From Cyanobacteriota bacterium (GTDB lineage: Bacteria; Cyanobacteriota; Cyanobacteriia; Cyanobacteriales; Nostocaceae): a DNA stretch of 64,000 bases. The position numbers and the translations under genes were made by a program. The notes below the pieces were generated by a model, which saw only the letters and a program-made list of their open reading frames with translations, had not been told where the DNA came from and searched no databases. The stretch is taken from positions 96,001 to 160,000 of the forward strand of contig JBJOKS010000001.1 in NCBI GenBank assembly GCA_046045965.1. The letters run 5' to 3'. This document shows positions 1 to 35,857 of the stretch, piece by piece (positions within the stretch are counted from its first letter, which is position 1; each line of letters begins with the position of its first letter).

Positions 1-1237
1 TCTCTACTTCGTTATAGAGATTGGTGTACTCGGTACAGTTACCTTGAGAACGACATAAAAAACTAATATTAGCAGACTGCCAAATTACTAAACCTGCAAT
101 TCCTCCAGTAACCAGTATAGTTGCTAAGACACTGATTATCAATTTCCAGTTACGTCTTTGATTATTTGAATTGTTTTTTTCTTCATTTTTTTCTATCTGT
201 GTAATTTCTTGATGGTTTAGAGGTACTTCTTCTGGTGTGAACTCAGTCAATAATTGAAAATTAGCTACTACTTCTAAATTCCTGTCAATTTTCAATGTAA
301 CAGTATGATCAGATCCATTTACTGCACCACTCCAGTGAGTAAACCGCCAATTTTGTTTTGCTATTGCTTTTACAGTCACTTGTTCATCTAATTCGTACAA
401 ACCATCACCTTCAATTTCGCCGCTTCCTGACGGTTTTGCTGTGACGGTTAAAGTATATTTCGGAATCAGCGGAGAACCAATATTTTTAGTTGTTTTTTGC
501 TCTACTGGTGATTCTGGATCTAGTTTTTCTAGTTCTGCTTCCAGGCGATCGCCTATCTCCCGTATTCTGAAGTTGCGCTTATTTGGGTTTGGATCAGTTA
601 CTTGAAGATACCAATCTGTAGCTGTTAATTTTGGCTGCAAATCAGCAATAATTTTGGCAAAAGCATAAATATCAGATGCCTTTGTTAAATTATCTGTTCC
701 TACTTCTGGTGCAAGATAATTTTTGTATTCTTTTTTCAAACTCTTTATAACGGATTGATTTCGCGAATTAATCAATGGTGCATAGCCAAAACCCCTTAAA
801 TATACTTTGTTTTCTACCACTACAAAACTAGACGGATTGAGGTTGCCATGTATTTCTTGTTGATGCAAAATATGAATGATTTCGGTAGCCTGTTTCCATA
901 ATTCTTTTGCATTTTCTGGTTGCTGATCTAAAAATTCTGCTAGGGTTTTGGTTTTTTCAGACCAAGTTGAATAAACTGAAACTATGGGAGAATTTAGCTC
1001 CTTACGAGTAGTTTCTGGGACAACAAAGCCAGACTTATTTTTAAAATCATTCAAAGATGCAAAGTGTTCAAATAATAAGTTTGCTTCTGCTTCCGATACT
1101 TGAGTTTGTAAAACTTGTAAAATTACAGTCTTGTTGTCCTTAGTAGCCCTAAACCATTTATAAATAGAATCCTCACTAATGCTTGCTACTAGTTCATATC
1201 CACAAATTGATTGTTTTTCTTCCATTTGATTAACCAT
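1..1237 (-). CDS. Membrane-anchored Ser/Thr kinase-like (pseudokinase) protein with a divergent InlB-B-type beta-repeat; runs off the left window edge
   Basis: Hand translation from ATG 1237 stays open to position 1: MVNQMEEKQSICGYELV...IHGNLNPSSF...YLRGFGY...YLAPE...SDIYAF (kinase fold), then YTLTVTAKPSGSGEIEGDG...WRFTHWSG...VVANF, then hydrophobic LIISVLATILVTGGIAGLVIW. Absent from the ORF track because its stop lies outside the window. Confidence 0.85.
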   Translation of the reverse strand, partial: MVNQMEEKQSICGYELVASISEDSIYKWFRATKDNKTVILQVLQTQVSEAEANLLFEHFASLNDFKNKSGFVVPETTRKELNSPIVSVYSTWSEKTKTLAEFLDQQPENAKELWKQATEIIHILHQQEIHGNLNPSSFVVVENKVYLRGFGYAPLINSRNQSVIKSLKKEYKNYLAPEVGTDNLTKASDIYAFAKIIADLQPKLTATDWYLQVTDPNPNKRNFRIREIGDRLEAELEKLDPESPVEQKTTKNIGSPLIPKYTLTVTAKPSGSGEIEGDGLYELDEQVTVKAIAKQNWRFTHWSGAVNGSDHTVTLKIDRNLEVVANFQLLTEFTPEEVPLNHQEITQIEKNEEKNNSNNQRRNWKLIISVLATILVTGGIAGLVIWQSANISFLCRSQGNCTEYTNLYNEVE

Positions 1238-1319
1238 AAATTTTGCTTTTAGTAAATTGACAACATTTCTCTTATTTAATCATGTTTATGCTTACTTTTG
1301 GCAGTTGAGCAATTAAGTT

Positions 1320-2804
1320 CTAGGAAAAATGAAATCCATCGTTTCTCTTAAATCCTTCACTTTCTAAAGTAACAGATACTCTTTGTTCTTCGCTCACTTT
1401 GAAAGTAACTTTAATGTCTCCTCCTTGAAGATGCTCAGGTAATTCGGTAATATTAATAGTTCCTACTAAGGAGTTATCTTTAACTAGTTTGGATGACCCT
1501 TGATAGACGTTGATATCTAAAGCATCTACATTATTGCTAATAGTAAATATTTGACTTCCTTCGCAGGGGGTTTTCCGATTTGCGGCAATTAACGGATGGA
1601 ATTTACCACCGATTATTTCAATACCTAAAGCATGGCAAGTACGCCTAAAGATTTTCACTTCTCGCCCGAAAACTTCTCTGTCATCAAGATAGGCTGCATA
1701 GATCGCTGCTCCCTCGGCTACACAGAGGGACAAATTACTATTAGCATAAATCTTTTGATCACCGAAAATATCACTCAATAAAGCTCTCATGCAGGGAATA
1801 TTACTGGAACTGCCAGCTAAAATTACGCGATCTACAGCTGATGAATTTAAATTAGTATCATCCCAAATTTTTTCAATTATGCCCTTGATTTTATTAACGT
1901 AAGGCTGAAGCAAATTTTCAAGTTCTGAACGAGTTACAATGGTATCTGTTGGCTGTCCAGGAATTGCTTCAAATATGACATCAGCTATTTGTGCGGCGCT
2001 GAGGGTATGTTTCGCTTCTATCGCTACTTCTGTAAGTTTGTGTTGAGCTTTGCGTAATGATTTTTCATCTAAGTTAGATAAATTTAACTTACCTTTATTG
2101 ATGAATAATTTTACTAGTTCTTGATCAAAGTCCATTCCTCCTAGTCGATCATCTCCACCTGTTCCTAACACTTCAAAAAGTAGATTATCTGGTGTTTGTT
2201 CTAGTCGAAATAGAGTTAAATCAAAAGTACCACCTCCTAAATCAAATACCAAAATATTTTCTGCATGGGTTCTGTCTGGATAGTCTTGAACCAACTGCCA
2301 AGTATATGCAAGAGAGGCAGCAATGGGTTCTTGTAAGATGTCGGAAAAGTTAATATCAGCTAATAAGGCTGCCTGGCGGGTATTTTCACATTGATGGGCT
2401 TTAAAATAGTAAGGTACAGTTACAACTGTGCCACGACTTTGGAGTTTACCTGCATATTGCTTATCTTTGATATCACTGTATAGATACTGGAGAATTTTGG
2501 CTGATATTTCAATTGGGGAAAATTCTTGTCCTCCTAGTACAATTCTTTGTGTAGCATCATCCATCAAACGTTTAACACCTTGAATCATATTTTCTGGAAA
2601 TGTAAAACCTTTGCGATATGCAGTGACTCCTACTAAAGATTCTTTTTTTGTTGGATCATTGTAAAATACTGATTGCAGAGTAGAACCAGCAGGGCTAAAT
2701 ATTTGATAAGCTCTTGGTCCTCTACCATCCCAACGAGCGATCGCACTAAATGTTGTTCCTAAGTCAATACCTAAAACGGGATTCAATTGATGATCAACAG
2801 GCAT
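1320..2804 (-). CDS. Hsp70-family protein (DnaK-like, no C-terminal lid)
   Basis: GIDLGTTFS, TVPYYF, EPIAA, FDLGGGTFD and LGGMDFD motifs; 494 aa, ending after the beta substrate-binding domain. Confidence 0.93.
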   Translation of the reverse strand: MPVDHQLNPVLGIDLGTTFSAIARWDGRGPRAYQIFSPAGSTLQSVFYNDPTKKESLVGVTAYRKGFTFPENMIQGVKRLMDDATQRIVLGGQEFSPIEISAKILQYLYSDIKDKQYAGKLQSRGTVVTVPYYFKAHQCENTRQAALLADINFSDILQEPIAASLAYTWQLVQDYPDRTHAENILVFDLGGGTFDLTLFRLEQTPDNLLFEVLGTGGDDRLGGMDFDQELVKLFINKGKLNLSNLDEKSLRKAQHKLTEVAIEAKHTLSAAQIADVIFEAIPGQPTDTIVTRSELENLLQPYVNKIKGIIEKIWDDTNLNSSAVDRVILAGSSSNIPCMRALLSDIFGDQKIYANSNLSLCVAEGAAIYAAYLDDREVFGREVKIFRRTCHALGIEIIGGKFHPLIAANRKTPCEGSQIFTISNNVDALDINVYQGSSKLVKDNSLVGTINITELPEHLQGGDIKVTFKVSEEQRVSVTLESEGFKRNDGFHFS

Positions 2805-2840
2805 AGTATCAAACCACTAATTTACTAATTTACTAATTAA

Positions 2841-3968
2841 CTAATTTTTCACAACGATGACTTCAGCACAGCGCAAAACTATTCGACTATCTGACGCTAA
2901 TTCATATTCATATCCGGCTCTACTAACTTCTTTGATGTCTTCAGTTGTTAATGTTTCATCTGGTTCAATATCTATAGGTTCATGTCGGTCATAATCAATT
3001 GGATTTCCTTTTTCAACTTGCATTCTATAAACACCAAATTTGTTTAATAAAGATAGAATCTTTTCCTGTAATTGAGCGTAGGTATCAAACCATAGTTGTA
3101 AATTCTCTGCTTGTTCTGGCTCTGCTTGTTCTGGAACTTCTTTTTCCATTGACTGAATTAGTGGCTCTGAAAATTGTTTACCACTATCTAAGGCATCTAT
3201 AATTGGTAGCATTTTTTTCTCAAGAAATTGCAGGAAACGTTTGCGTCTATTTTGGGCTGTTTCCCGCATTTTTCCCACTAAATGCCAGCGTTCATTTCCG
3301 CGTAGTTTCAATTGAGAGTCTAAAACTTTTTTGGCTGATGCTTCATCTACTTCCTGAACAATTAATTGACTCAACTCCTGTTCTGTAATTATCAAATGAT
3401 CTATAGATTCTCTGACTACGGTTTCTGTAATTTCTTGTGCTTGTTCTCGCAAGCGTTCTACCATTCTGCCAATAATTTCTAACCCTTCATTTCTACCTTG
3501 AATTTTTGCTTGTAATTCCTGTGGTAGAGATAATTTTAATTCTTGACTATTCGTTAATATGGCTTTGGTATCCTCAAGAAATAATGGCAACTCGTTGAAA
3601 ATTTCTTGTCCTTTCTGTTGCCATTGACAAGCTTGCTCGTAGTATTGTTCTAATTCTTGAATATCCGATTCCTGACTTTCTTTTTCCTGTTGCCAAGCTA
3701 AAGTAACTAATGCTGATAAGTCTTTAATCTTGGGAATATTATGCAGTGGCTGTTCTGTATTTGTTTCTAAATTAGCTGGTTCAGTGTTTGGTTGTTCACT
3801 GTTTTCTAACAAATTTTCTAATCCTGTTGATGTCTCTGTTGAATTAGGATCATTAGATCCAACCTCAATTGGATTATCTGGGTTTTGTTGATCTTGATCA
3901 GTTGCTAGAGTATCGTTATCCTGTGCAGAAGAATTCGATTGGATAGGGTTTGCAGAATTGTTTGTCAT
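2841..3968 (-). CDS. GrpE-like nucleotide exchange factor with a long acidic/coiled-coil N-terminus
   Basis: C-terminal LPIIDALD...GNPIDYDRHEPI...EVSRAGY...LRCAEVIVVK matches the GrpE head pattern; lies between Hsp70 genes. Confidence 0.8.
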   Translation of the reverse strand: MTNNSANPIQSNSSAQDNDTLATDQDQQNPDNPIEVGSNDPNSTETSTGLENLLENSEQPNTEPANLETNTEQPLHNIPKIKDLSALVTLAWQQEKESQESDIQELEQYYEQACQWQQKGQEIFNELPLFLEDTKAILTNSQELKLSLPQELQAKIQGRNEGLEIIGRMVERLREQAQEITETVVRESIDHLIITEQELSQLIVQEVDEASAKKVLDSQLKLRGNERWHLVGKMRETAQNRRKRFLQFLEKKMLPIIDALDSGKQFSEPLIQSMEKEVPEQAEPEQAENLQLWFDTYAQLQEKILSLLNKFGVYRMQVEKGNPIDYDRHEPIDIEPDETLTTEDIKEVSRAGYEYELASDSRIVLRCAEVIVVKN

Positions 3969-3996
3969 TTTATTATTGTTTTTATCACTAATTTGC

Positions 3997-5610
3997 TTAC
4001 GCGCGAGTTATTTCTAATTCATCAGCAGAACTTGAACTAACCGCCTGAACTTTCAGTAAGTTTTGTTGATCGATAGCAAAGGTAACTGTAATCTTTTCTT
4101 GTCCTTTGGATTTCGGGGGAATTTTAGTTAAGAAAAACTCACCAATACACTTGACTCCTTGATCATTGACGTATTCTACAAGTTCTGTTGACTGATAGAT
4201 ACGAATGACTAACTCTGTCATATTATCGCGGGAAGTAGTATAGTCTTTCTTTTCAATCAGAGGCTGATCTGTGGGAATTTCTAAATCTTTTTTTAGTAAA
4301 CAACTAAATTTACCACCTGCTATTTCAATACCTAAGAAATGTGTAACAATGTTGTTGATGGTGACTGTGCCTTTAAATTGGTCTTCAGGATTAACATTTT
4401 CTGTTTCTGGAATTTTGTCTGATGGTACTCCTAAATTAGCTCCAAAAATTGCTGCTCCTCTGGCTACTGCTGTATCTGGATCTGTGTCGGCATACGGCTC
4501 TTTACCAAACATTTCTGTGAGCATGGTTCTCACTAATGGAACTCGACTAGAACCACCAATCATGATGATCCGATCAATATCACCAATTTCTAATTTGGCA
4601 CTAGCTAAAGCTTGTTGTAATGCTTGTTTTGATTGCAAAATTAAATCTTTAATAGCAGTGTTGAAATCTTCACGAGTAATTTCTAATTCCAAGTTATACA
4701 TATTGCCTGATTCATCTGCAATCAAATTAGGCAGATCAATTTTTGCTGTTTGAGCTTCGCTCAGTTCCCATTTAGCTTTTTCTGCTTCCTCTTTTAATTT
4801 CTGTTGAGCGTTACGAATTTTATTGGGGCTAATTCCTTGATCTTTTTTGTCGTCTAAAAGATTAATGCCAGAAGTTTCTAGCAGTTTGGCGGCGGCAATT
4901 TTCATAATTTCATAGTCGAAATCGTCTCCACCTAATTGAGAGATTCCTGCTTTAGCAAGAATTTCAAAACAACTGGTTGATTCAAGGGAGGAATTGAGTT
5001 TAAGTATACAGACATCGAAAGTTCCACCACCAATGTCGTAGACTAAAATTGTCTGATTTCGTTGTTTTTCCATGCCATAGGCGATGGCTGCGGCTACGGG
5101 TTCTTCTAATAGGTAAAGTACCTCTAAATTCGCCAGTTCACTGGCTTTGATAGTGGCTGTTTTCTGTGCATCGTTAAAGTTGGCAGGAATGCAAATCACC
5201 GCATAGCGGGGTGTACCCCTGAGCTTATCAACATCTTGGGCAGCTTCCGCAGTTAACTTTGACAAAATTTCCGCGGAAATATCGACTGGTGTATATTTTT
5301 TTCCAGGGGATGCGGGAAACTCTTTTGTCCATTCCGTTCCCATCTCCCTTTTGATTGATTTCACCAGATTATCTGGATCGATAAGTAAGCGTTTACGCGC
5401 TTTCTTTCCCACTACCATTTCCCCAGCTTCTTGATCTTTAGGGATGTAAACCACAGAGGGACACATTTTTTCCCCTTCTATGGGTAGGATTTCAGCTACA
5501 CCTTTTCTAAAGATAGCGATCGCTGAGTTAGATGTACCTAAATCAATACCTAAAATATAAGGACTGTTTTTCGGTGCTATTGTCATAGATTTAAACAAGT
5601 CAATGGTCAA
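3997..5610 (-). CDS. Hsp70-family protein (DnaK-like, no lid); probable start ATG 5586
   Basis: GIDLGTSNS, IPANF, EPVAAAIAYG, YDIGGGTFD, LGGDDFD, IGGSSRVP. Confidence 0.93.
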   Translation of the reverse strand: MTIDLFKSMTIAPKNSPYILGIDLGTSNSAIAIFRKGVAEILPIEGEKMCPSVVYIPKDQEAGEMVVGKKARKRLLIDPDNLVKSIKREMGTEWTKEFPASPGKKYTPVDISAEILSKLTAEAAQDVDKLRGTPRYAVICIPANFNDAQKTATIKASELANLEVLYLLEEPVAAAIAYGMEKQRNQTILVYDIGGGTFDVCILKLNSSLESTSCFEILAKAGISQLGGDDFDYEIMKIAAAKLLETSGINLLDDKKDQGISPNKIRNAQQKLKEEAEKAKWELSEAQTAKIDLPNLIADESGNMYNLELEITREDFNTAIKDLILQSKQALQQALASAKLEIGDIDRIIMIGGSSRVPLVRTMLTEMFGKEPYADTDPDTAVARGAAIFGANLGVPSDKIPETENVNPEDQFKGTVTINNIVTHFLGIEIAGGKFSCLLKKDLEIPTDQPLIEKKDYTTSRDNMTELVIRIYQSTELVEYVNDQGVKCIGEFFLTKIPPKSKGQEKITVTFAIDQQNLLKVQAVSSSSADELEITRA

Positions 5611-5660
5611 ATAATTAGTCGTTAAATAAATCGAAAGCTATCTCGACTCTTGATTTATGG

Positions 5661-7193
5661 TTAAATGTTAGTATCAATAGTCACGGTTTTTGCATTAATC
5701 CTCCCAGTATTAATCAACTGATTTACCAGTGTTATGTGCAAAGCACCACCATTTTCGGCTGCATACTCTAAAATAGGTGTGATCACTTCACTTCTTGGTA
5801 ATTCCACCATCGTAAACTTGAGGATGCCATCAGCGTCTAAATTAAAGATCACTCCCAAAGGTACTTCTTCAGACTGAGGTGTAATTGGGAGAATTAGCTG
5901 CCCCAGTTGAGTATTTTTCTGGGGATCAGGATGTTCACCGCGAAAGACGCTAACACGTACTCGTTCTTGCCAAGGGCGAGATGTAGTAGCAAATCTGCCA
6001 TATTGGCAGGGATAGGGAGTTTGGCGAGGAATAACGGCTACAAATACTAGTTCTTCTTCACCATTGTTTTCCTGAAGCATATCTACGCCATAAGTGTGCG
6101 GTGTGACATCTGTCACTTCCACAGGCAAATTATCTACTATGCTTGCTGCCACAATTGCTGCCCCATGTGCCACAACTTCATCTACTCGGTCTGCGGTAAA
6201 GGGGTCTTTAATTTCCTGGGAAACAATTTCTCTAACTGCGCGGTTTCTGGTTGAACCTCCAACTAAAATTACGCGATCAATATCCCCTGCACTCATCCCC
6301 GCATCTCGCAGTGCATCGCGCATACACTGGATAGTTTTTTGCAGCAAGGGTTCTATCAGTTTGTTGTATTGAGATAATGATAATTCCAGTTCTAAAGGAT
6401 GACCCAAACAATCAGAGATTTCGATCAAGGCGGTTTCTGCTTGGGAAAGTTCTATTTTGGCTACTTCTGCGGCTTCTTTCAATCTCTGTCGAGCAATTTT
6501 TCCCTTGCGGCTAGAGTTATTGAGCAAATCAATCCCGGTTTTTGCTTGAAATTGGCTACTTGCCCAAAACATAATGGCTTCATCGAAGTCATCTCCACCT
6601 AAGCAACTGTCTCCACCTACTGCTTTGACTTTAAACTCATTTTGTTGGACTGTGAGGATGGAAACGTCAAATGTGCCGCCACCTAAGTCATAGACCATGA
6701 GAGTTTGGTCTTTACCTTTATCAAAACCGTAAGCGATCGCAGCTGCTGTTGGTTCAGGAATCAGTTTAAGAACATTCAAACCAGCTTTCTCCCCTGCTCT
6801 TTTCGTATCTTCCTTTTGAGCTTCTGTGAAGTAAGCAGGAACTGTAATTACTACATCTCGGATCGGCTGTCCTAGTTCTTTTTCCGCACATTCCACTAGA
6901 CGTTTTAGTATCATACTACCGATGTCCAATGGGGTCAGAGTCTTACCACCTACACGGTAAATTTGACTGCGATCGCCCATAAACCTCTTCGCTGAAGCAA
7001 CGGAATTCTCAGGATCTATTAATAACTTCGCTTTTGCAGATTGTCCCACCAACATACTTCCATCGTTACGGAAGGATACCACAGAAGGTAGAGTCGGACG
7101 ACCATCAATTAATAATGTTTCTACTACTCCTCTACGAAATACAGATATGACGGAATTAGTAGTTCCCAAATCAATACCGACAGCGTAAGCCAT
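5661..7193 (-). CDS. Hsp70-family protein (DnaK-like, no canonical lid)
   Basis: GIDLGTTNS, TVPAYF, EPTAAAIAYG, YDLGGGTFDVS, VGGSTR, DVTP. Confidence 0.94.
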   Translation of the reverse strand: MAYAVGIDLGTTNSVISVFRRGVVETLLIDGRPTLPSVVSFRNDGSMLVGQSAKAKLLIDPENSVASAKRFMGDRSQIYRVGGKTLTPLDIGSMILKRLVECAEKELGQPIRDVVITVPAYFTEAQKEDTKRAGEKAGLNVLKLIPEPTAAAIAYGFDKGKDQTLMVYDLGGGTFDVSILTVQQNEFKVKAVGGDSCLGGDDFDEAIMFWASSQFQAKTGIDLLNNSSRKGKIARQRLKEAAEVAKIELSQAETALIEISDCLGHPLELELSLSQYNKLIEPLLQKTIQCMRDALRDAGMSAGDIDRVILVGGSTRNRAVREIVSQEIKDPFTADRVDEVVAHGAAIVAASIVDNLPVEVTDVTPHTYGVDMLQENNGEEELVFVAVIPRQTPYPCQYGRFATTSRPWQERVRVSVFRGEHPDPQKNTQLGQLILPITPQSEEVPLGVIFNLDADGILKFTMVELPRSEVITPILEYAAENGGALHITLVNQLINTGRINAKTVTIDTNI

Positions 7194-7452: not shown

Positions 7453-8013
7453 ATGAAAAACCAGCTACTGAATACGATTCTGACAGGAACAGCTATTACA
7501 TTAGCCTCTAGTTTACTGTCAAGCACTCCCGCTCAAGCTCAAGCAACGGCTTTTGTTTGTGGACAAAGCAACAATGTTCCAGCAACAATGGCTCAAACAG
7601 CAAGAGGTAATGTCCCCGTGATCCGTTGGAATTCTGACTATTTCGCAGCTGCTGGATATGATCCACAAACACGCTGTGAAATGGTATCACAAAGATTCCA
7701 AACTTTCCTCCAAAAGAAGGCTTTGAACTATATCACCACTGGACTCATCAATGGACAAAAAGTTGTCTGTGTTGCTCGTTTTCAAGGAGGTGACTGCGCT
7801 CGTGACCTTCCAGAAGCAGGATTATTATTCACACTCAAACCAGAAAGCAATCCCGGCCAAACTCTACGACAGTTAATGCAAGTAAGAGTAGGTGCATCTG
7901 GACCATTGAATGAAAATGATGCCCGTGTTTATATCAACGTCAATGATTTTCTGAATACATCACCAGTAGAGGAAAACACTATGAATCCACCGGTTGAAAA
8001 AAGCCTCTTTTAA
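7453..8013 (+). CDS. Secreted COP23-domain protein
   Basis: Signal peptide ending AQA; FVCG...VPATMA...PVIRW...RC..VS.RFQ...VVC...LLFTL pattern typical of cyanobacterial COP23. Confidence 0.8.
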   Translation: MKNQLLNTILTGTAITLASSLLSSTPAQAQATAFVCGQSNNVPATMAQTARGNVPVIRWNSDYFAAAGYDPQTRCEMVSQRFQTFLQKKALNYITTGLINGQKVVCVARFQGGDCARDLPEAGLLFTLKPESNPGQTLRQLMQVRVGASGPLNENDARVYINVNDFLNTSPVEENTMNPPVEKSLF

Positions 8014-8941
8014 CTTCTTATTAATCTGTTCAACCATGCTAAAGAAGCTAGAACTTTTGATGAATAATCTTGAAGTTACCAAAGGAAAAGGTATGCTTTG
8101 GCTGACAATTACCTTGCTTATTTCTACTGCTGGATTATTCATAGGAGAGGCAGAACAGATCAAAACTCTAGCTTCTGCTGATTTAAATACTATTCAAACT
8201 GATTTTTCTGACAACACAGAGGTATTGACAAAAGAAATAATCCAGCAGTCTAATTTATCAAATACCATACCTGAATCCTTGGCAATAATCGCCAAATCAA
8301 TTACCGTCAAAGTCTTAGCTGGTGAGGGTTCTGGTTCAGGAATTTTAATTCAACGACAAGGAGATATTTATACTGTTCTGACTAATGATCATGTATTAAG
8401 CTTAGGTAATAAGTATCAGATCCAAACACCAGATGGAAAAATATATGCGGCTTCTCGTTATTCAGTAGAGTTGGAAAACAATGATTTAGGATTAATCCGT
8501 TTCCAAAGCAGCAACAAATCTTACAGTATTGCCTCTTTAGATAGTGGCAAAGACTTAATGGTTGGGGATCAGCTGTTTGCTGCTGGGTTTCCCATAGATA
8601 TCAAGGTTTTTGCTAATCAACAAGGCGATTATATGATCTCTCATCCAGAGGGGTTTGTACTTACTTATGGACGGGTATCATTAGTCAATGACAAAATTTT
8701 AGCAGGAGGGTATCAGCTAGGTTATACTAATGACATTCAAAAAGGAATGAGCGGCGGTCCTGTACTTAATTATCAGGGACAGGTAGTAGCAATCAACGGA
8801 ATGCACGCTTATCCTCTCTGGGGAGATCCTTATGTATATAAAGATGGTTCAAAACCTTGTACATTTATGCGAGATTTCATGATCCACTATAGTTGGGGCA
8901 TTCCTATGGAAACATTTATCAAAATAGCGCCCAAACTTTAA
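7994..8941 (+). CDS. Trypsin-like serine protease (Trypsin_2), exported; true start probably downstream of 7994
   Basis: GSGILI, LTNDHV (His), NDLG (Asp), GMSGGPV (Ser). Confidence 0.9.
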   Translation: MKKASFNFLLICSTMLKKLELLMNNLEVTKGKGMLWLTITLLISTAGLFIGEAEQIKTLASADLNTIQTDFSDNTEVLTKEIIQQSNLSNTIPESLAIIAKSITVKVLAGEGSGSGILIQRQGDIYTVLTNDHVLSLGNKYQIQTPDGKIYAASRYSVELENNDLGLIRFQSSNKSYSIASLDSGKDLMVGDQLFAAGFPIDIKVFANQQGDYMISHPEGFVLTYGRVSLVNDKILAGGYQLGYTNDIQKGMSGGPVLNYQGQVVAINGMHAYPLWGDPYVYKDGSKPCTFMRDFMIHYSWGIPMETFIKIAPKL

Positions 8942-9003
8942 CTATTGCAATTATCGTTATCCATTATTTTGGCAAAAAAATTTATCAGTTAATGGAGATT
9001 TAG

Positions 9004-9639
9004 TTGATGAAAAGATTGAACAAACTAACATCCATATTCATCGGTACAGTAATGGTTCTAGCATTTTCCTCCGCAGGGTCAGCATCATCACAAGAAGCCA
9101 ATACTATTAATCAGGATGCTATTAAATTTGAAGGTTCTGACTACTTAACAGTAATTCAAGCCAGAATATTGATAGCCCAAGGACAGGCACTCTTGAATAT
9201 GGGCAGATACAGAGAAGCACTAGCAACATCTGATCGAGTCTTAGCAATTAAACCTACTGATTATCAGGCTTGGGAAATCAGAGGTAATGCTCTGAATAAA
9301 TTAGGTAGAGACAGGGAAGCTGTGACTGCTTATGAGCAAGCTTTGAAATTATTACAACAACCACAACAGAAATCTGTTCCAGGCAATAATACAGCCAAAG
9401 TAGAAAAACAATCAGAAATGTACCTGGGATTAATGCTGGATGATATTTGTAATCAAAACCAGAAATCCTATCCAATTCAGGGAAATAGATTGTCACAAAC
9501 TGAATCTGAATCTGTGAGTTTACCTGTATTTCCGAATATTAACTCAGGTTCAATCATCCCCAATTCAGAACCACAACTTAACATTCAGCCTTCCCCTATC
9601 ATCCCGCTAACTGAACCATTAAGACCTGCGCTTTGGTAA
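9004..9639 (+). CDS. Exported TPR-repeat protein
   Basis: Signal peptide; two TPR motifs (GQALLNMGRYREALA..., AWEIRGNALNKLGRDREAVTAYEQAL). Confidence 0.75.
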   Translation: MMKRLNKLTSIFIGTVMVLAFSSAGSASSQEANTINQDAIKFEGSDYLTVIQARILIAQGQALLNMGRYREALATSDRVLAIKPTDYQAWEIRGNALNKLGRDREAVTAYEQALKLLQQPQQKSVPGNNTAKVEKQSEMYLGLMLDDICNQNQKSYPIQGNRLSQTESESVSLPVFPNINSGSIIPNSEPQLNIQPSPIIPLTEPLRPALW

Positions 9640-9677
9640 AATTGATAGGAATTATTTGAATATTAAATACATACATT

Positions 9678-10595
9678 TTGGTTGAACAAAAACTTATGAA
9701 TCTGAAAAAACGAATTCCAAAAATAGTGAGTAGTGCAGGATTAGTAAGTACAATTTTCTTGATGATGCCAAAAATTGTAGTTGCACTACCCGGTAGTGAA
9801 GTCAGCAAAATTGCTGAACAGATTACGGTTCTTATTGATGGACAGAACCCTGGTTCTGGAGTAATTATTGGCAGAAAAGAAAAGTCTTATTACGTACTCA
9901 CTGCTAAACACGTGGTAGAAACACAGGATGAATACACAGTGCAAACATCAGATGGAAGCCGATATCAATTAAACTACAGCACTGTCAAAAAATTACCTAA
10001 TGTAGATTTAGCTGTTCTCCAATTTACAAGTAATAAAAATTATAACGTTGCCAAATTAGCTGATTCCGACCAAGTGGGTGTAGGTGTAAGTGTTTATATT
10101 GCTGGGTTTCCTAACCCTGGAAGAGAAATCACTCAGCGAATTTATCAGTTCACAAATGGAGAAGTATCAGGAAGACCAAAACCTGCTCTTAGAGATGGAT
10201 ATGCAATTGTTTATACTAATGTGACTAGAGCCGGCATGAGTGGTGGACCAGTATTAGATGCCAATGGTCGTGTCGTCGGTATTCATGGACGTGCTGAAAG
10301 TGAATCAGTTCCTACCAACGAATCAGGAACATCTGTTTCCAAACTTGGCTTTAATTTGGGAATCCCCATTAATACTTTTTTGAACTTAGCAAATAAAGTA
10401 GGAGTGAATCTAGGAGTACAAGCTGAAAAATCGCCCGTTGTTACTCAAACAAAGCCTCCCACTACTGTTTCCAGTCCTGTGTCAGAACCAAGTTCCACTC
10501 CTTCCTTTTCTCCGGGGACAATTCCACGACGACCGACACCCATACGTCCTACAAATCTACCACAAGCACCGGTTTGTGCTGGTAGTAAGTGTTAA
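9678..10595 (+). CDS. Trypsin-like serine protease with Pro/Ser/Thr-rich tail
   Basis: GSGVII, LTAKHV, VDLAV, GMSGGPV. Confidence 0.92.
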   Translation: MVEQKLMNLKKRIPKIVSSAGLVSTIFLMMPKIVVALPGSEVSKIAEQITVLIDGQNPGSGVIIGRKEKSYYVLTAKHVVETQDEYTVQTSDGSRYQLNYSTVKKLPNVDLAVLQFTSNKNYNVAKLADSDQVGVGVSVYIAGFPNPGREITQRIYQFTNGEVSGRPKPALRDGYAIVYTNVTRAGMSGGPVLDANGRVVGIHGRAESESVPTNESGTSVSKLGFNLGIPINTFLNLANKVGVNLGVQAEKSPVVTQTKPPTTVSSPVSEPSSTPSFSPGTIPRRPTPIRPTNLPQAPVCAGSKC

Positions 10596-10640
10596 TGCAA
10601 ATATGGTTTTTGAGTGAAATATACATAATCAAAACGAGGT

Positions 10641-11891
10641 ATGAAAATAATGCTAAAACAAATTTGTCAATCTAGCTTTTTAGCTCTGGCTTTAGTTCCA
10701 TTATTACTTAACTTCAATGCAGAAATCGCTGATGCCGCACCTGCAATTTATGAAGATGAACTCACAACTACCCGCGGGCTAAGATGGGGCGCTCCAGGAT
10801 TACCTTATAACGAAGCTGCTGATATTAAAGACAGTCTGGTAGATACAGTATTAGGAAAAGTTGTACCAGATCGTCATGGTATTGGTGCTAGTAGTTTAGG
10901 ACTTTTTGGTCCATTTCAAGGTCCACAATATGGCAGATTGGTATTTGTTTCCTTGTGGGGGAGTAAGATTGAAGGATGTTTTGTAGAAATGATTATTCAA
11001 TATTCTCCTAGTGATGGCCAAGCTAATGCCAATGAGATAGTTCCTAAATTGTTAGAAGTGGGAATTGGTTCACAGGCGATCGCATTACCTCCACAAGCAA
11101 ATACACAAAAAAGTTTCAGCCAAGGTTATTCTTACGAGATTGAAAGAGAGAAAAGGAAATATATCGTCAATAGCACTTGGTACATGACGCGTAATACATT
11201 TGCGCTCGATTCTAATATTGCGAGCATTCTCAGCAATGCACCAGTAAAACAGACTCGCGCTCGTCTAACCCTTGCTAATGGTGAGACGATGATTATCCCT
11301 ATAGGAGAAGGGACAGTCAAAAAGTGGAAGGAAGCATATAGTTTTAATCCCTATTGTACTAATTTAAATCAACCCCAACCTCAACAGCCGTCCACAACTC
11401 CACCGGTAAGTACACCATCAAAATTACCCTCTAAACCAGCTGCAAAACCGTCGCAGAGGTCTTCTAATCCTCAAAAAATGGCTGGTGGAAAAAAACCACC
11501 TGCTACTCAGTCACCTGCTCCTACACAACGCACAGTGGGAAATGTGGCTTTAGCAGCGACACAAACTTTAGATAATGTGTTGATTCAACTAGATGGAGCG
11601 AATGTAGATTCTTTAGGTAACTTCACTGCTAATTTGATTATTGAAAATCGCAGTCCTTATTTATTTGGCTTTGTGCCAGTATTTGCTAGAGTATATGATG
11701 CTAATGGACAAAGGGTATCTGCACGGATTTCTTTTAATCCTGGAGAAGATGCAACTATCGCACCTGGAGTTATACAAAAAGGCAAATTATCGATATTTGG
11801 ACAAAAGTGGCAAGAAACTGGCTCTCAAAATTTAATTTTGGAAATTCGGGAAAATTCAACTAGGGGTAGACTTTTTCGAGTTCCATTTTAA
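10641..11891 (+). CDS. Hypothetical exported two-domain protein with a Pro-rich linker
   Basis: 416-aa ORF with signal peptide, co-oriented with the protease cluster. Confidence 0.7.
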   Translation: MKIMLKQICQSSFLALALVPLLLNFNAEIADAAPAIYEDELTTTRGLRWGAPGLPYNEAADIKDSLVDTVLGKVVPDRHGIGASSLGLFGPFQGPQYGRLVFVSLWGSKIEGCFVEMIIQYSPSDGQANANEIVPKLLEVGIGSQAIALPPQANTQKSFSQGYSYEIEREKRKYIVNSTWYMTRNTFALDSNIASILSNAPVKQTRARLTLANGETMIIPIGEGTVKKWKEAYSFNPYCTNLNQPQPQQPSTTPPVSTPSKLPSKPAAKPSQRSSNPQKMAGGKKPPATQSPAPTQRTVGNVALAATQTLDNVLIQLDGANVDSLGNFTANLIIENRSPYLFGFVPVFARVYDANGQRVSARISFNPGEDATIAPGVIQKGKLSIFGQKWQETGSQNLILEIRENSTRGRLFRVPF

Positions 11892-14329: not shown

Positions 14330-14652
14330 AGTTGCTGTTATTTATTATTCACATTTTTGGGTATTTCAGTAAATTCAATCTTTCCTTTTCAATAAATTTA
14401 AAATGGAATATTCTCATCCTGTAAATCCTTTAATCCTGGACATCCTGATTCAGACAAAAATTATAACACAAGATAACTCAATAACATCCATCTCCCTATA
14501 TTTCTATTTTGTATTCCCCCATACAGAAAACGAAATCCTAAAACAAAATAAAGAAATCGGTTTTTCGACTACCAAAACTCTACACTAATAATAGTAACAG
14601 CAAATACATAAAACCTATTTTTCCTGTCATTAGCACAACTTTTTTCGACAAA

Positions 14653-28075: not shown

Positions 28076-28732
28076 TTATAAATAAAAATTTTCTAAAAAA
28101 TAAATGATGGTAGCGCAAAATGGTTTGTATCTACCATCATCATCTAATTCTAAATAGTCCTTAATAATATTCTTAATTTCCTCTTCATTAAAATCCTCAT
28201 CTGCTAATAATTCTAATTCTGCATCAATAGCAGCTTGACGCATTCTTTGTAACTTAGGAATATTCAAGGCTAAATTTTCTATTGTTGTTTCAGCAGCAAG
28301 TTTTTTACTGGTTTCTTCTGTAGGTAAAATTTCCCCCGCAGCAGAATATCTAAAAAACTCCGTACAATTTTCTATTAATGGAGAAACTAACAAATTTTCA
28401 TCGTACCAATTATCTTTTTTATGTCCACAATGTACGGGAATTTTTGGTTGAGTTTCATCTTCTCCTTGACAGGAAACCATCAGATTAAAATAATCAAATC
28501 TCACAGTTTCATCTGTACCTTGAGGTTTAAAATGTTCAATATGACAACTTCCTTTATCTATAGCAACACCACAGTAACAACAAATATAACCCTGTTCTTT
28601 TAATAAAGTCTCTAAAAGCTGATCTTTAACTACCGTTCTTCTAAAACTTTTCCAACTAGGAATTTTATCACCTTGTTTAATTTTCCACGCAGATAAACTA
28701 TTAAGTTCGACACCCTTTTGAATATATTTCAT
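28076..28732 (-). CDS. HNH endonuclease, PtuB/TIGR02646-like
   Basis: EQGYICCYC...HIEHFKPQ...YFNLMVSC...HCGHKK; overlaps the ATPase stop. Confidence 0.85.
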   Translation of the reverse strand: MKYIQKGVELNSLSAWKIKQGDKIPSWKSFRRTVVKDQLLETLLKEQGYICCYCGVAIDKGSCHIEHFKPQGTDETVRFDYFNLMVSCQGEDETQPKIPVHCGHKKDNWYDENLLVSPLIENCTEFFRYSAAGEILPTEETSKKLAAETTIENLALNIPKLQRMRQAAIDAELELLADEDFNEEEIKNIIKDYLELDDDGRYKPFCATIIYFLENFYL

Positions 28733-29979
28733 TTACGCGAAAGTCCTTTTCTCCTCATTAAAATATCTGCTTTGACAAACTGCGCTTCATCTTCACCAAT
28801 TTTTGCTGCTAATTCTTGTCGTAATTGTTTAGCAGCGTCTAAATTTCCTGCATCAATTAAACGAAATAATCTTAAAAGTTCCTGTTTTATTTCCTGTGGA
28901 CGTTCAGGAACATTCATTAAATCTTCTAAAATTTGATTACTATCTCGACCATAGGAACTTTCAGGACGTTTAGCAATTATACCATCATTGGTTTTTTCTA
29001 AAATGTAAATTCCTTGGGGTTTAACTTGACTAATTACTTGTGGTGAATGGGTAGTAACTATAAACTGACAATGGGAAAAAGTTCTAGTTAAAGCTGGGAT
29101 AATTTCTCTTTGCCATTTTGGATGTAAATGTAATTCAATTTCATCAATTAAAACTACTCCATAACCATCTAGAGGATTTTCTAAACCAGGGTTAGCAATA
29201 GCTAATCTTCTCGCTAAATCTCCTACCATTGCTAATAAGCATTTTTCCCCATCTGATAATTGATTAACTATTAATTCTTCACCATCTTTTTCTACTGTCA
29301 TTCTTAAAGGAGAACGACGAACACGCAGTTTTTTAAAATTAGGAATTAGTGAAGATATTGCTTGTCTAACAGCTTCTAATTCTTTATCTTTATAATCATG
29401 TAAATCTCGGAGTGTTTCGCTTTCTATATCTTCTCGATTTCTAAACCATTGGAAAAATTTAGAAAAACTAATTTTTACACCTATTAAGGATTCTTCATAA
29501 GCGTCTATTTGTTTAAATTCTGACTTGTGAGGAACTTCTAAATCAATATCAATAACTGCTCGATTAGTAGGATAATAAACTATTAGGGGTATGTTATACA
29601 AAATATTACTATACCAATTTCTCCAAATAGCATTACAAGCTGCTCTTATTTTTTCATGTCCTGATTCTTCAGATATTCCATGACGATTTCTAAAAATTGT
29701 CCAATTATTTTCACCGGGAGATAATATTGTAATATCTAATATTGTGCCATTACTTTTATTAGAAATATCCAGTTCATTAAATACTTTTACTTCTTGAGTA
29801 TCAGCAACCCCTCCTATCCATTCCATATAACGAGAAAGCAATAAACAAAGAGCATCAAGAATACTTGATTTACCCACACCATTAATACCAATAAATACTG
29901 TAGGTTCTATTTCATCAAAGTCTATTATTAAATTATCAATTCCGCGAAAAAATTGTATTTTTAGCTGCTTAATTCTCAT
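28729..29979 (-). CDS. ABC-type AAA ATPase, PtuA-like
   Basis: GINGVGKS, LSDGEK, LIDEIELHLHPKWQ, TTHSP. Confidence 0.88.
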   Translation of the reverse strand: MRIKQLKIQFFRGIDNLIIDFDEIEPTVFIGINGVGKSSILDALCLLLSRYMEWIGGVADTQEVKVFNELDISNKSNGTILDITILSPGENNWTIFRNRHGISEESGHEKIRAACNAIWRNWYSNILYNIPLIVYYPTNRAVIDIDLEVPHKSEFKQIDAYEESLIGVKISFSKFFQWFRNREDIESETLRDLHDYKDKELEAVRQAISSLIPNFKKLRVRRSPLRMTVEKDGEELIVNQLSDGEKCLLAMVGDLARRLAIANPGLENPLDGYGVVLIDEIELHLHPKWQREIIPALTRTFSHCQFIVTTHSPQVISQVKPQGIYILEKTNDGIIAKRPESSYGRDSNQILEDLMNVPERPQEIKQELLRLFRLIDAGNLDAAKQLRQELAAKIGEDEAQFVKADILMRRKGLSRK

Positions 29980-30126: not shown

Positions 30127-30687
30127 TTAAACCTTCCTCAAAAAATCCATAATTGTAATTTCACACTCAGGAAAAGCTAAAGGTGATATAGTTAAATTTT
30201 CCCCTAAAATACTTTCACTTTGATAACCTGCGATACTCGGATCATGATAAACACATAACTTACGTCCATTAACGTCTAAAACCCAATAATCAATAATACC
30301 CGACTTAGCATAAGCTAAACTTTTAACTTCCCGGTCATATTTCAAACTAGAATCAGCAACTTCAATCACTAAAAACACTTCCGATGGTTGAGGATGATGA
30401 TCTTCATAATCTAAAACATTCGTTTTCACAACCGCAACATCTGGTTCAGGTTCAGAAAAATCATCAAGAGTAATAGGTGATTGAGTCCTAATTAAAACCT
30501 GATCACCCAAACGTTGATTTAAAATTCTTTGTATTCTAGTAATAGCTGCTTCGTGTGCAGTTCCTTTAGCTGCCATTTTAAGAATTTGTCCTGATAGTAA
30601 CTCTAGACGTTCTTCCGGGTGAAAAATCCCCATTTCCACCATTCTATGGTATTCTGTAACACTAATTTGGCGAATGTTAGTTAACAT
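30127..30687 (-). CDS. Uma2-family endonuclease
   Basis: EPEPDVAV, LVIEVADSSLKYDREVK..YA..GI.DYWVLD. Confidence 0.9.
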   Translation of the reverse strand: MLTNIRQISVTEYHRMVEMGIFHPEERLELLSGQILKMAAKGTAHEAAITRIQRILNQRLGDQVLIRTQSPITLDDFSEPEPDVAVVKTNVLDYEDHHPQPSEVFLVIEVADSSLKYDREVKSLAYAKSGIIDYWVLDVNGRKLCVYHDPSIAGYQSESILGENLTISPLAFPECEITIMDFLRKV

Positions 30688-30703
30688 AAAAATTCCTTTA
30701 TTA

Positions 30704-32701
30704 TTACTTACCCAACATTTTATCCCTTAAATGCTTAATCCTATCCCGTAACTTTGCAGCTTCTTCAAACTCCATCTTTTTCGCTGCTTCCTTCATCTGT
30801 TTTTCCAACACAGTAATTAACTCAGGAATATCCTCCAAAGCAAACTCATCAATATGTTCATCAACCACCTTTAAATCACTAGCATTCAACCTGCGAGAAA
30901 CATCCAAAAATGATAAAATTGCATTACTTGATTTTTTCACAATCGGTTGCGGAGTAATCCCGTGCATTTTATTATAAGCCATTTGAATACCCCTTCTTCG
31001 ATCAGTTTCCTCAATAGCTTTAATCATGCTATCTGTTAATTTATCAGCATACATTATCGCTTTCCCGTTAATATGACGCGCAGCACGGCCAATAGTTTGA
31101 ATTAACGAACGTTCCGCACGTAAGAAACCTTCCTTATCTGCATCCATGATAGCAACTAAAGAAACTTCCGGTAAATCCAAACCTTCTCGCAATAAATTTA
31201 CACCCACCAAAACATCAAATTTACCAATTCTTAAATCTTGTAGAATTTCAATTCTCTGAATAGAATTAATCTCAGAATGCAAATATCTAACTTTAATTCC
31301 CCTCTCTTCCAAATATTCAGTTAAATCTTCCGCCATGCGTTTAGTTAAGGTGGTAATTAACACCCGTTCTTTAAGTTCAACTCTATCTTTAATTTCTCCT
31401 AATAAATCATCAACTTGTCCATCTGTGGGACGCACAAATATTTCTGGATCAATAACTCCAGTTGGTCTAATTACCTGTTCTACTATATTATCTTCTGAAA
31501 TTTCAATTTCCCAATTTCCCGGAGTAGCAGAAACGAAAATACATTGATTAACTTTTTGCCAAAATTCTTCAGCTTTTAAAGGACGATTATCAGCAGCACT
31601 AGGAAGACGAAAACCATGATCAATTAAAACTTTCTTCCGTGCTTGATCACCATTGTACATTCCGCGAATTTGGGGAACAGTAACGTGAGATTCATCAATT
31701 ACTAATAACCAATCTTTAGGAAAATAATCAATTAAACATTCTGGTGGTTCTCCTGCTTGTCTACCTGCTAAATGACGAGAATAATTTTCTACACCGTTAC
31801 AATATCCCACTTCTCTTAACATTTCAATATCATAACGAGTGCGTTGATCTATTCTTTGTGCTTCTACTAATTTTCCTAATTCTTCTAAGTTTAATTTCTG
31901 TGCTTTTAATTCAGCGGCGATATCTGCACAAGCAATTTCTAACCTTTCTTCTGGGGTGACAAAGTGACGCGCAGGATAGATATTGACTGTTTCTAAACTG
32001 CTGAGAATTTCCCCCGTTACCGGATCAATATAACGTATTGCGTCTATTTCATCGCCAAAAAATTCAATTCTAATTATTCTATCTTCGTAAGCCGGTCCAA
32101 TTTCTAAAACATCACCACGAACTCTAAATTTACCCCGTCCCATTTCGACATCGTTGCGGCTATACTGCACAGATGTTAAATCTCGTAAAATCTGCCTTTG
32201 GTTAACTTCCATACCTATTTCTAGTTTAATTGCGGCTTTGAGGTATTCTGCGGGCATCCCTAAACCGTAAATACAACTAATGGAAGCAACAACAATTACA
32301 TCACGACGTTCAAATAGAGAACGAGTTGCAGAATGTCGTAACATATCTATTTCATCATTAATCGCTGCTGTTTTTTCTATATAAGTATCAGTAACGGGAA
32401 TATAAGCTTCCGGTTGATAATAGTCGTAATAACTAACAAAATACTCGACAGCGTTATGGGGGAAAAATTCCCGTAACTCATTACATAACTGCGCTGCAAG
32501 GGTTTTGTTATGTGCCAGAACTAGGGTAGGTTTACCAACTTTTTCAATAACTGCTGCGATAGAAAACGTCTTACCCGTTCCCGTTGCACCGAGTAAGGTT
32601 TGATAACGACTACCAGCTTGGATGCTTTTAAAAAGTTGGGCGATCGCCTGTGGTTGATCACCAGTGGGAGTAAAAGGAGCTTGAAGACTAAATTCTGTCA
32701 T
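30704..32701 (-). CDS. uvrB: Excinuclease ABC subunit B
   Basis: [33 protein letters not shown]-terminal UVR domain; start taken at [10 protein letters not shown]. Confidence 0.97.
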
Positions 32702-32969
32702 AACCGTTTCGCTGAACATACCCTTTCCCATAGTAGCGATAGTGGGGATGCGATCGCCTAACCGTGTAATCAGATATTGTTTACAAAAGTTTACTCTTTT
32801 AATTTACTTATGTATCTGTTTTGAAGAAACTTATATCTATATGTGGTTTTTTAAGGTTACACTCTTGTATATGGGAAAAAATAAACCTTTCCTTAAATAT
32901 TGTAAAATTCACGTAACAAGCTAGAGGTGTTAGTTTATAAACCACCTCAGATGCAAAGGAGATAAAAAA

Positions 32970-33320
32970 GTGGAAGAAAATCAAGGTAATACAGAACAAG
33001 GTTCTCAGGGGACAATTATAGTTGCTGGAGAGCGTCCTATTGGTAGCAGCGACTTACAATTTTCAGGAACAGTATCAATAGCTGGTTTACGTCCCATTAG
33101 TACAAGTAGTATACAAGTGATTGAAACTTACAATTCAATGGGAATTCGTCCCATTACTGCGAATACATTTCAAGTAGTGAATAGTATTAACCTATCCGGT
33201 ATTCGTCCAATTGCTTCCAGTGCATTGGTCGTTTCGGAAAACTATTCAATATTTGGTAATCGTCCCATAGCATCAAATACAGTTGATGATTCTGAGGTTT
33301 TGATGGGTTTTCTCGACTAA
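32970..33320 (+). CDS. Small hypothetical protein built from five GxRPI repeats
   Basis: GERPI, GLRPI, GIRPI, GIRPI, GNRPI at about 19-aa spacing; AGGAG RBS. Confidence 0.75.
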   Translation: MEENQGNTEQGSQGTIIVAGERPIGSSDLQFSGTVSIAGLRPISTSSIQVIETYNSMGIRPITANTFQVVNSINLSGIRPIASSALVVSENYSIFGNRPIASNTVDDSEVLMGFLD

Positions 33321-33347
33321 TTTCTAATATTATCCTCATATCTTTTC

Positions 33348-33380
33348 AACCCGGTTTTATCAATAAACTGGGTTTTTTTT
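33348..33380 (+). terminator. Rho-independent terminator
   Basis: AACCCGGTTT...AAACTGGGTT stem followed by a T run. Confidence 0.7.
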
Positions 33381-33496
33381 ATTCCTTATTCCTTTTTGCA
33401 TAGATATCTAATATATCGTATATATCTTGTGGTGGAAGTGTTAAGTCAATATTCAAGCTAATTTAGTAGGGTGATTAGTAATTATAGGTAAAAAAA

Positions 33497-33679
33497 ATGA
33501 GCATAGAAAAACGGGCGAAAGCCACAGGTAAAAATATTGAAGGTAAAGCACAAGAAGCTTTAGGAAATATGACTGGTGATCCCGAAGATAAAGCTGAAGG
33601 TAAGGCCAAACAAACAGAAAGTGAAGTGCGTCACTCTGTGGAAGATGTCAAAGATAATGTAAAAAAAAAGCTTGATTAA
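33497..33679 (+). CDS. CsbD-family stress protein
   Basis: EGKAQEALG.MTGD.....EGKAKQ. Confidence 0.88.
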   Translation: MSIEKRAKATGKNIEGKAQEALGNMTGDPEDKAEGKAKQTESEVRHSVEDVKDNVKKKLD

Positions 33680-33752
33680 AAGAACGCAGATAAACGCAGA
33701 TAGACGCAGATGATTTATTGATGAGAAAGTTTGTTATCTGAGGAGTAAAATT

Positions 33753-34193: not shown

Positions 34194-34263
34194 CCATAAA
34201 AGGTAATTGAAAATTCAAAATCACAGCTTCATTGTGTAAATAATAAATCAGGAGAGCAGTCAC

Positions 34264-34785: not shown

Positions 34786-35023
34786 TTATCTGTAGTTTTG
34801 TAGTAAATAAGTTCCCCGACTTCTGCTTTGTTTGGTAAGAAGTTGGGGATCTAGGTTCTATACTCGAAAAAAGATTATTCCTAATTGTAGAAATAAGATA
34901 ATGGAAACTTTAATCTGAGATCCCCGACTTCTGTAATAAATTGATAATTTATTGACAAGTTTAAAAAAGAAGTCGGGGATCTGATGTTGATCGTTTTGTT
35001 TGTGCGATCGCCTACACCACTAC

Positions 35024-35664: not shown

Positions 35665-35857
35665 AGGTCTAATATCTAGCAGTGACACTATTTTAGATTC
35701 CTGTTGATCAAAAAATACTAAGCTGACTGCTAACGCGATTAACATCACAGGTCTACTATAGCATCATCAGCAGCAAATTTAAATTTCATAAAAAAATAAA
35801 CCCCCGACTTCCTAAAGAAATCGAGGATTTAAGTATTATTCAGTTAACAGTATTCAA

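Follow-up and report, generated by a model that had tools for sequence, protein, structure and literature searches.

What does a bacterium do with three Hsp70 genes, a GrpE-like gene and a kinase-like gene set in one row? The question is raised by a locus at the left end of the window, by which we mean the whole analysed stretch of 64,000 nucleotides (contig JBJOKS010000001.1, positions 96,001 to 160,000) from a cyanobacterium of the Nostocaceae. An initial annotation had described five closely packed minus-strand genes in the order Hsp70, Hsp70, GrpE-like, Hsp70 and kinase-like protein, and the open reading frames (ORFs), coordinates and gaps were confirmed. The first four products are called HspA, HspB, GrpE-L and HspC here. 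With a probability of roughly 0.55, we read the module as a J-independent heteromeric Hsp70 switch of three non-interchangeable subunits, which is likely tied to Ter-type stress and does not serve bulk folding.

All three operon Hsp70s were matched by Pfam HSP70 above cut-off (E 1e-117, 8e-106 and 1e-76). They belong to the Hsp70 superfamily, with a nucleotide-binding domain (NBD) carrying the catalytic motifs and a beta-sandwich. On TIGR02350 they scored 400, 366 and 256 bits against a DnaK equivalog cut-off of 822, and all of them fell below the HscA cut-offs. Their identity to DnaK was 31–41%. Four full-length DnaKs are encoded in the source genome, which also has 9–11 J-domain ORFs and a canonical GrpE next to a DnaK and a DnaJ. 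A quick maximum-likelihood tree was built from 52 rows (14 near-duplicate rows were left out) and included HspD, a fourth paralogue from other loci. HspA, HspB, HspC and HspD formed one clade each, with values of 99–100 in the Shimodaira–Hasegawa-like approximate likelihood-ratio test (SH-aLRT), and HspA and HspD were sister clades. DnaK formed its own clade (SH-aLRT 97), and none of E. coli HscA, HscC and YegD grouped with any of the four. The operon Hsp70s thus stand in separate clades and are, judged by sequence, not housekeeping DnaK.

Pairwise identity among the three was 39, 28 and 31%. Together with the separate clades, this bears out the earlier view that no recent tandem duplication took place. 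Orthologues are 45–65% identical across phyla and paralogues 28–39%; hence, the paralogue split is old.

Gene order was counted in 27 loci, among which one pair is duplicated, another pair overlaps and two are halves of a single bin. HspC comes directly after GrpE-L in all 25 loci with a visible next gene, HspB precedes GrpE-L in 20 of 21, and HspA precedes HspB or HspD in 12 of 12. HspD lies between HspA and HspB in 8 of 12 loci, and most HspD carry a vWA domain. HspC is followed by a pseudokinase (15 loci), another kinase-like membrane protein (2) or a TerD-like gene (1). Based on these counts, the core is HspA-HspB-GrpE-L-HspC. The search for the order Hsp70-Hsp70-GrpE-Hsp70 therefore found it fixed across phyla. 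Separate clades and conserved order together support a dedicated, non-housekeeping module, as had been proposed.

The GrpE-L family comprises 112 clusters at 50% identity (E<1e-30). The HspC profile found 288 proteins at E<1e-150, from Cyanobacteria, Ca. Vecturithrix, Ca. Magnetomoraceae, Desulfonema, Priestia, Desulfitobacteriaceae and Armatimonadota. Intact orthologues occur in five named phyla (Cyanobacteria, KSB3, Desulfobacterota, Bacillota and Armatimonadota). The module is rare and was present in 2 of 401 cyanobacterial genomes, in 4 of 71 genomes of one family and in 2 of 9 KSB3 genomes. In one locus (L018, 5457–7748), the C-terminal vWA domain of HspD is replaced by a 260-residue domain without a Pfam match. 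In another (L006, 14266–20885), a 1063-aa gene without a family match and a helicase-like protein of at least 1187 aa lie directly downstream of the module.

Residues were compared in 54 module Hsp70 sequences, numbered as in E. coli DnaK; the roles of the DnaK residues are general background unless a paper is cited. D8, K70, E171, D194, T199 and D201 are invariant (54/54), and all module Hsp70s are probably ATPases. The lid is gone: all chains stop at the last beta-sandwich strand, 32–69 residues past DnaK position 470, compared with about 170 in DnaK. N170 and L392 are missing in all 54 sequences. R167 is missing in 42 of 42 HspB, HspC and HspD sequences and kept in 10 of 12 HspA. The J-docking surface is thus degenerate, and the linker is replaced as well. 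J domains contact the VLLLD linker (PMC13580251), and in the module Hsp70s this linker has given way to subfamily-specific motifs. No J-domain gene was found in any module locus, which extends what had been noted for the window.

The paralogues differ from each other, and each has a distinct peptide pocket. The linkers of HspA and HspD are of the PIEISD and PIEFSN types and resemble the Hsp110 linkers PFKFED and EFSITD (PMC12305717, PMC13580251). HspA retains most allosteric residues, including D/E393 and D481. Its peptide pocket is altered (F426 to G or A), and an insert of about 35 residues lies between the last two strands of the substrate-binding domain. Hsp110 also bears an insert between these two strands. 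The charged, diverged linker of HspA and HspD is a further likeness to Hsp110, whose extended helical lid has no match in the module.

In HspB, the linker contains a long acidic insert, and the subdomain IIB loop has 67 residues, compared with 66 in DnaK, 61 in HspA and HspD and 61–63 in HspC. GrpE acts on subdomain IIB (PMC4753570). Since only HspB has a full-length IIB loop, HspB is likely the client of GrpE-L. HspC has lost R151, D148, D393 and K414, and its K55-E267 pair is changed to Y/F and I/V. HspC retains the ATPase residues, and its allosteric and J-docking residues are gone. Long HspB fusions (941–2685 aa) were set aside as weak evidence, as only four eukaryotic Hsp70 repeats were involved.

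The likeness to canonical DnaK-DnaJ-GrpE is therefore limited to the catalytic motifs of the NBD, the beta-sandwich and the GrpE head. The operon differs by lacking the lid, the VLLLD linker and a J gene, by its putative single-chain GrpE and by its separate clade. E. coli HscA-HscB, HscC-DjlB/DjlC and YegD are also specialised Hsp70 paralogues. HscA and HscC differ from the operon Hsp70s in that R167, a hydrophobic linker and a lid remnant are retained and a J partner is present. YegD adjoins a vWA-PP2C-kinase triad (yegI-pphC-yegL). The source genome itself has a second specialised Hsp70 locus (contig C5, 103724–113066), where a 738-aa Hsp70, three unnamed ORFs, a short GrpE and a J-TPR protein are encoded on one strand.

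The modelling of heteromers covered one pair, HspB(1–529) with HspC(1–400). The interface score (ipSAE) was 0.66, and the best of three controls reached 0.00. Of 157 solved complexes, 116 attain the ipSAE mark applied, compared with 2 of 215 mismatched pairs. Runs agreed in at least 87% of contacts, and the predicted local distance difference test (pLDDT) of the partners was at least 84. The contacts lie at DnaK positions 28–32, 53–60, 271–285, 345 and 359–368. In the DnaK-ATP dimer, the NBD contacts are 56-272' and 28-345' (PMC6742908), and this dimer resembles Hsp70-Hsp110 (PMC4457872). The model pass shows at least a likeness to solved complexes. With this caveat, the modelled pairing supports the hetero-oligomer that had been suggested.

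The residues of this face provide evidence independent of the model. E272 is kept in 17 of 17 HspB and 12 of 12 HspA, and in none of 91 HspC. Position 56 is R or K in 51 of 91 HspC, 3 of 17 HspB and 0 of 12 HspA, and position 28 is Q in 86 of 91 HspC. Because the two dimer contacts are retained asymmetrically, the residue pattern favours HspC-HspB or HspC-HspA heterodimers over homodimers.

Pfam GrpE matched residues 217–374 of the 375 residues of GrpE-L (34.2 bits; cut-off 25.8). A model built from a 97-sequence alignment (pLDDT 86.9; predicted template modelling score 0.76) has a disordered N-terminus, an extra helical hairpin (85–178) and one beta head. Residues 204–375 of the model match 1dkg_B (Z 11.1, root-mean-square deviation (rmsd) 5.1, 142 aligned). 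Residues 121–313 (approximate limits) match single-chain four-helix bundles (1yo7_B over 123–310, Z 10.5, rmsd 3.0, 115 aligned), a Z of about 10.5 being common among helix bundles. The canonical GrpE bundle is made by two chains (PMC4753570); hence, the hairpin would stand in for the second chain. GrpE-L appears to be a single-chain pseudo-dimer in which hairpin 85–178 replaces the second chain and only one beta head is present. A natural fusion of pseudokinase-InlB and GrpE-L exists (P0019), and three proteins (P0238, P0241 and P0244) are in-frame chimeras of an HspC NBD, a coiled-coil piece of GrpE-L and an HspB lobe II with decayed catalytic motifs. Both the fusion and the chimeras may be local rearrangements.

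The fifth protein consists of a kinase-fold domain, an InlB B-repeat (Flg_new_2), a transmembrane (TM) helix at 367–385 and a helical C-terminal part. Its N-terminal part adopts a Hanks-type kinase fold in the model (pLDDT 86), with Stk1 and PknB as the best Foldseek matches (E 1e-9 to 8e-9). The position of the catalytic Lys is occupied by Q, and the Asp of HRD is missing in all 14 homologue rows; the Asp of DFG is present in 1 of 14 and missing in 13 (the motifs go by their usual names). As far as the sequence tells, the protein is a conserved pseudokinase and catalytically dead in all aligned homologues, so that its description as a kinase needed changing. A clear TM helix (hydropathy peak >2.3) was found in 5 of 14 rows, with the copy of the window among them. 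Seven of the 14 rows are soluble forms with extra B-repeats and short [ILV]GxAF motifs in a disordered tail. The membrane sensor of the initial annotation is accordingly not a core part of the system.

The link to stress comes from the neighbouring genes. A trypsin gene lies upstream of the module in 9 of 11 loci with visible upstream DNA, TerF-type vWA genes lie upstream in 8 loci, and in KSB3 loci TerD-like genes are found on both sides. Likewise, Ter-associated systems (TerD, TerF-vWA and the TerY-P triad; PMC11090510) include TerF-type vWA and TerD-like genes. They differ from the module, which has neither PP2C nor an active kinase, and no multi-Hsp70 unit is described for Ter in the part of PMC11090510 covered. 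The TerY-P triad (TerY vWA, PP2C and active kinase) is missing from the module loci, and a triad sits on contig C17 of the source genome. There, a vWA-vWA-CAP-vWA-PP2C-kinase-unknown operon was observed at 30345–38548, and its first two vWA genes are homologous (27–44% identical) to the vWA pair upstream of the module in other genomes.

A mechanism can be proposed from these parts. HspC would pair face to face with HspB via the NBDs, over the surface used in the DnaK-ATP dimer and by Hsp110. In doing so, it may act as a regulatory partner, i.e. an Hsp110-like co-chaperone that replaces both J protein and lid. GrpE-L would reset HspB through the full IIB loop and compete with HspC for the same face of HspB, which would create an ATP-driven assembly switch. 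Client selection may fall to HspA and, where present, to HspD-vWA. The pseudokinase-InlB protein could serve as a scaffold and give the machine its location, which would be the membrane in forms with a TM helix. Because of the Ter-type neighbours, envelope, xenobiotic or infection stress is the presumed input, possibly sensed via TerF-type vWA, TerD-like and trypsin proteins. Downstream of such stress, the machine would most likely remodel a small set of dedicated clients.

Hsp70-Hsp110 and the antiparallel DnaK-ATP dimer (PMC13580251, PMC12305717, PMC4457872, PMC6742908) share with the module the NBD-NBD face, a diverged non-hydrophobic linker and the loss of J docking. The extended lid of Hsp110 forms half of the interface, whereas the module Hsp70s are lid-less and also keep a GrpE-type factor. 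The module Hsp70s are a separate bacterial branch: the modelled HspC would work like Hsp110 without being Hsp110. A more specific version is held only tentatively and at somewhat less than even odds. According to it, the module is an independently evolved, obligate heteromer of the Hsp70-Hsp110 type. HspC, with half of the DnaK-dimer contacts lost, would gate HspB and HspA through paired NBDs, thereby filling the place of a J protein, and the single-chain GrpE and the pseudokinase scaffold would make this a signal-triggered remodelling switch for sensing Ter-type stress or infection.

Several observations weigh against the heteromeric, J-independent switch. The HspC of the window has G342S and R345N in the adenine-binding motif. 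HspA retains R167, and the 9–11 J-domain ORFs of the genome could act in trans. The interface seen in the model coincides with the dimer face known from DnaK and Hsp110, so that the pass may reflect dimers that the predictor had learned, and the conservation of this interface is not enriched compared with the rest of the NBD (HspB 0.76 vs 0.77, HspC 0.59 vs 0.72). Position 56 is N in 23 of 91 HspC. HspA and HspD share the same surface, and the partner of HspC could therefore be HspA or HspD. A putative internal duplication in GrpE-L as the origin of the hairpin has weak sequence support, with an hhalign probability of 2.7–5.4% and a hidden Markov model E of 0.008 at best among 16 GrpEs. KSB3 loci lack the pseudokinase. 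Finally, the Ter link is contextual: the copy of the window has no vWA, TerD or in-operon trypsin genes, and 2 of the 11 loci with visible upstream DNA have no trypsin gene.

In the source genome, the operon and a divergent COP23-trypsin-TPR cluster (Table 1) form a 12.8-kb island. A genome of the same genus (G107) keeps the nif genes and has no such island at the syntenic position, and searches of 45 genomes from the same family found the operon in none. In the quick tree, the module proteins of the source genome did not group with other cyanobacterial copies. The missing island and the separate position of the proteins point to an acquisition of the operon by transfer. In a further genome (G160) the site is rearranged, and gain and loss are not polarised by it. 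Highly iterated palindrome 1 (HIP1) sites at 545, 2737, 5516, 6733 and 6969 were confirmed; the 5 sites in 7.9 kb match the density of the genome, at which 4.05 would be expected, and base composition alone predicts 0.03. Cyanobacterial loci have 6–20 HIP1 sites each, and three non-cyanobacterial-looking loci and the KSB3 locus have 0–1. HIP1 thus shows amelioration in a cyanobacterial background. The long residence in cyanobacteria that had been deduced from these sites does not hold for this lineage, given the island missing in the same genus and the 45 family genomes without the operon. The third-position GC content (GC3) of the operon genes lies within the 22nd–80th percentile of the genome, i.e. 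there is no foreign signature. Among viral contigs, 33 pattern matches were found and none was related (phage records were outside the search), and two GrpE-L queries gave no match in plasmids.

Patchiness and mobility of this kind (2 of 401, 4 of 71 and 2 of 9 genomes; island missing in the same-genus genome) could also be expected from an anti-phage or conflict system. In that case, the Hsp70s would serve as an NTP-thresholding switch for an effector, either trypsin or a partner that varies, comparable to the Hsp70-GrpE theme known from GAP1-N2 systems. The accessory genes do vary between loci, and several of the named hosts, which we take to be filamentous or multicellular, fit this picture. 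Trypsin and vWA are also common in systems of this sort (PMC7159879). The Hsp70-GrpE theme is in fact the closest described system: GAP1-N2 DO-GTPase systems (Kaur et al. 2020, PMC7159879) have a dedicated Hsp70 and GrpE and sometimes a second Hsp70, vWA and kinase themes, a membrane link and multicellular hosts. However, their central components are GTPases and GAP1, accompanied by an FNIII-DnaJ or FNIII-TPR protein, and FNIII fused to DnaJ or TPR was not seen among the subset of flanking proteins scanned. Their second Hsp70 lacks the peptide-binding domain (PMC7159879), whereas the three or four Hsp70s of the module all keep the beta-sandwich. GAP1-N2 (PF20013) was found in 0 of 5 carrier genomes (the control was present in 1 of 14; the source genome is 92% complete). 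The conserved core has no nuclease, TIR, SIR2 or pore effector, and PADLOC (2023 library) gave only weak generic matches in 2 of 14 proteins (E 7.5e-7 and 1e-5). The flanks are housekeeping in most loci inspected, without a defence island around them, and orthologues that are 45–65% identical across phyla would be above typical arms-race proteins. The anti-phage role raised initially is therefore unlikely, although it deserves to be kept in view.

The distinct peptide pockets would equally suit specialised assembly or export chaperones like HscA-HscB, with each Hsp70 acting alone on its own client and no stable heteromer. Clients could be the pseudokinase tail, as the [ILV]GxAF repeats in the tails of cytoplasmic forms (7/14 rows) could be ligands, or the secreted trypsin-TPR proteins. 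Moreover, HscA and HscC work without GrpE (PMC4753570), and E267 is lost in them as it is in HspC. This explanation is improbable because it leaves the fixed cross-phylum order and the asymmetric dimer-face residues unexplained, and because the loci of HscA and HscC each include a dedicated J gene, which the module loci lack. Least credible of all is that the genes encode redundant general chaperones, are a duplication in decay or assist the nif cluster nearby. The catalytic residues are intact and the operon adjoins nifB-nifS-nifU in the source genome, but all three Hsp70s score far below the DnaK and HscA cut-offs, intact orthologues exist in five named phyla, the same-genus genome has nif genes without the operon and no other inspected locus adjoins nif genes. 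Tree and gene order largely refute this explanation, and a link to nif or Fe-S assembly was ruled out by the HscA cut-offs and the same-genus nif genes without operon.

Table 1. Genes of the Hsp70 operon and the divergent cluster beside it (positions in the window unless stated otherwise)
Feature	Position	Strand	Description
HspA	5661..7193	minus	lid-less Hsp70, 510 aa
HspB	3997..5586	minus	lid-less Hsp70, 529 aa from ATG; 537 aa from TTG at 5610
GrpE-L	2841..3968	minus	GrpE-family protein, 375 aa
HspC	1320..2804	minus	most diverged lid-less Hsp70, 494 aa
Pseudokinase gene	1..1237 (95282-97237 on contig C1)	minus	651 aa complete
COP23, trypsin, TPR, trypsin and a 416-aa protein, divergent	7453..11891	plus	416-aa protein without Pfam match

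The genes of the operon (Table 1) are separated by gaps of 50 or 74, 28, 36 and 82 bp, the first depending on the start of HspB, for which homologues favour the ATG at 5586 over the TTG at 5610. It had been suggested that the operon may continue to the left. The fifth gene indeed extends 718 bp past the window edge, but no further genes follow and the operon has five genes. The J-domain, PP2C or vWA genes looked for upstream on the contig were not there; instead, a convergent oxidoreductase gene and then a nifB-fdxN-nifSU-nifH-nifD cluster were read from translations, which rules out a leftward extension. A promoter and terminator scan of the left flank of the operon found fewer sites than in shuffles. 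One RNA library gave mismatch-free contigs over the operon at 76–1124, 1434–3269 and 3332–6955. The same library also covered all neighbouring bins, including intergenic DNA, and hence provides no evidence for operon expression; neither does a second RNA run (share 0.09). The divergent trypsin-TPR genes may act together with the operon, as trypsin genes flank other loci, but their membership in the module is not shown.

Some further observations concern the source genome. Five more COP23 copies lie elsewhere in it. On contig C1 (76445–93159), a nifD-like gene of the nif cluster is, according to translations, apparently interrupted by an element with an integrase-like gene, which resembles heterocyst excision elements. 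A dispersed 43-bp repeat (window 14415–14457) has 152 matches on 45 contigs and gives rise to many loose ends in read mapping. An AAA ATPase and an HNH-like gene form a pair on the minus strand (window 28076–29979), presumably comparable to Septu or a retron-type ATPase-nuclease pair. On contig C17 (39741–43037), a gyrB-like gene of 1098 aa has an apparent intein insertion in its translation.

No description of this operon was found in the literature covered, which did not include a 2012 Ter paper, a Desulfonema proteogenomics paper or the PMC7159879 supplements, any of which might mention the locus. Nor was a match to an already characterised system found. The operon is a real, conserved and apparently undescribed variant of a specialised Hsp70 machine. 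Bacterial Hsp110-like co-chaperones are an open proposal (PMC13580251), which the operon makes directly testable. It is a compact, conserved and purifiable test case, with three paralogues that divide the motifs between them, a predicted heterodimer with named contacts and a GrpE-L that may work as one chain. Cultured hosts are Pseudanabaena cinerea FACHB-1277, Priestia megaterium and Desulfonema magnum. The module appears to be a rare but ancient Hsp70-on-Hsp70 machine and a candidate counterpart of the eukaryotic Hsp70-Hsp110 partnership. If this is true, the Hsp70 cycle would be run here without J proteins or lids.

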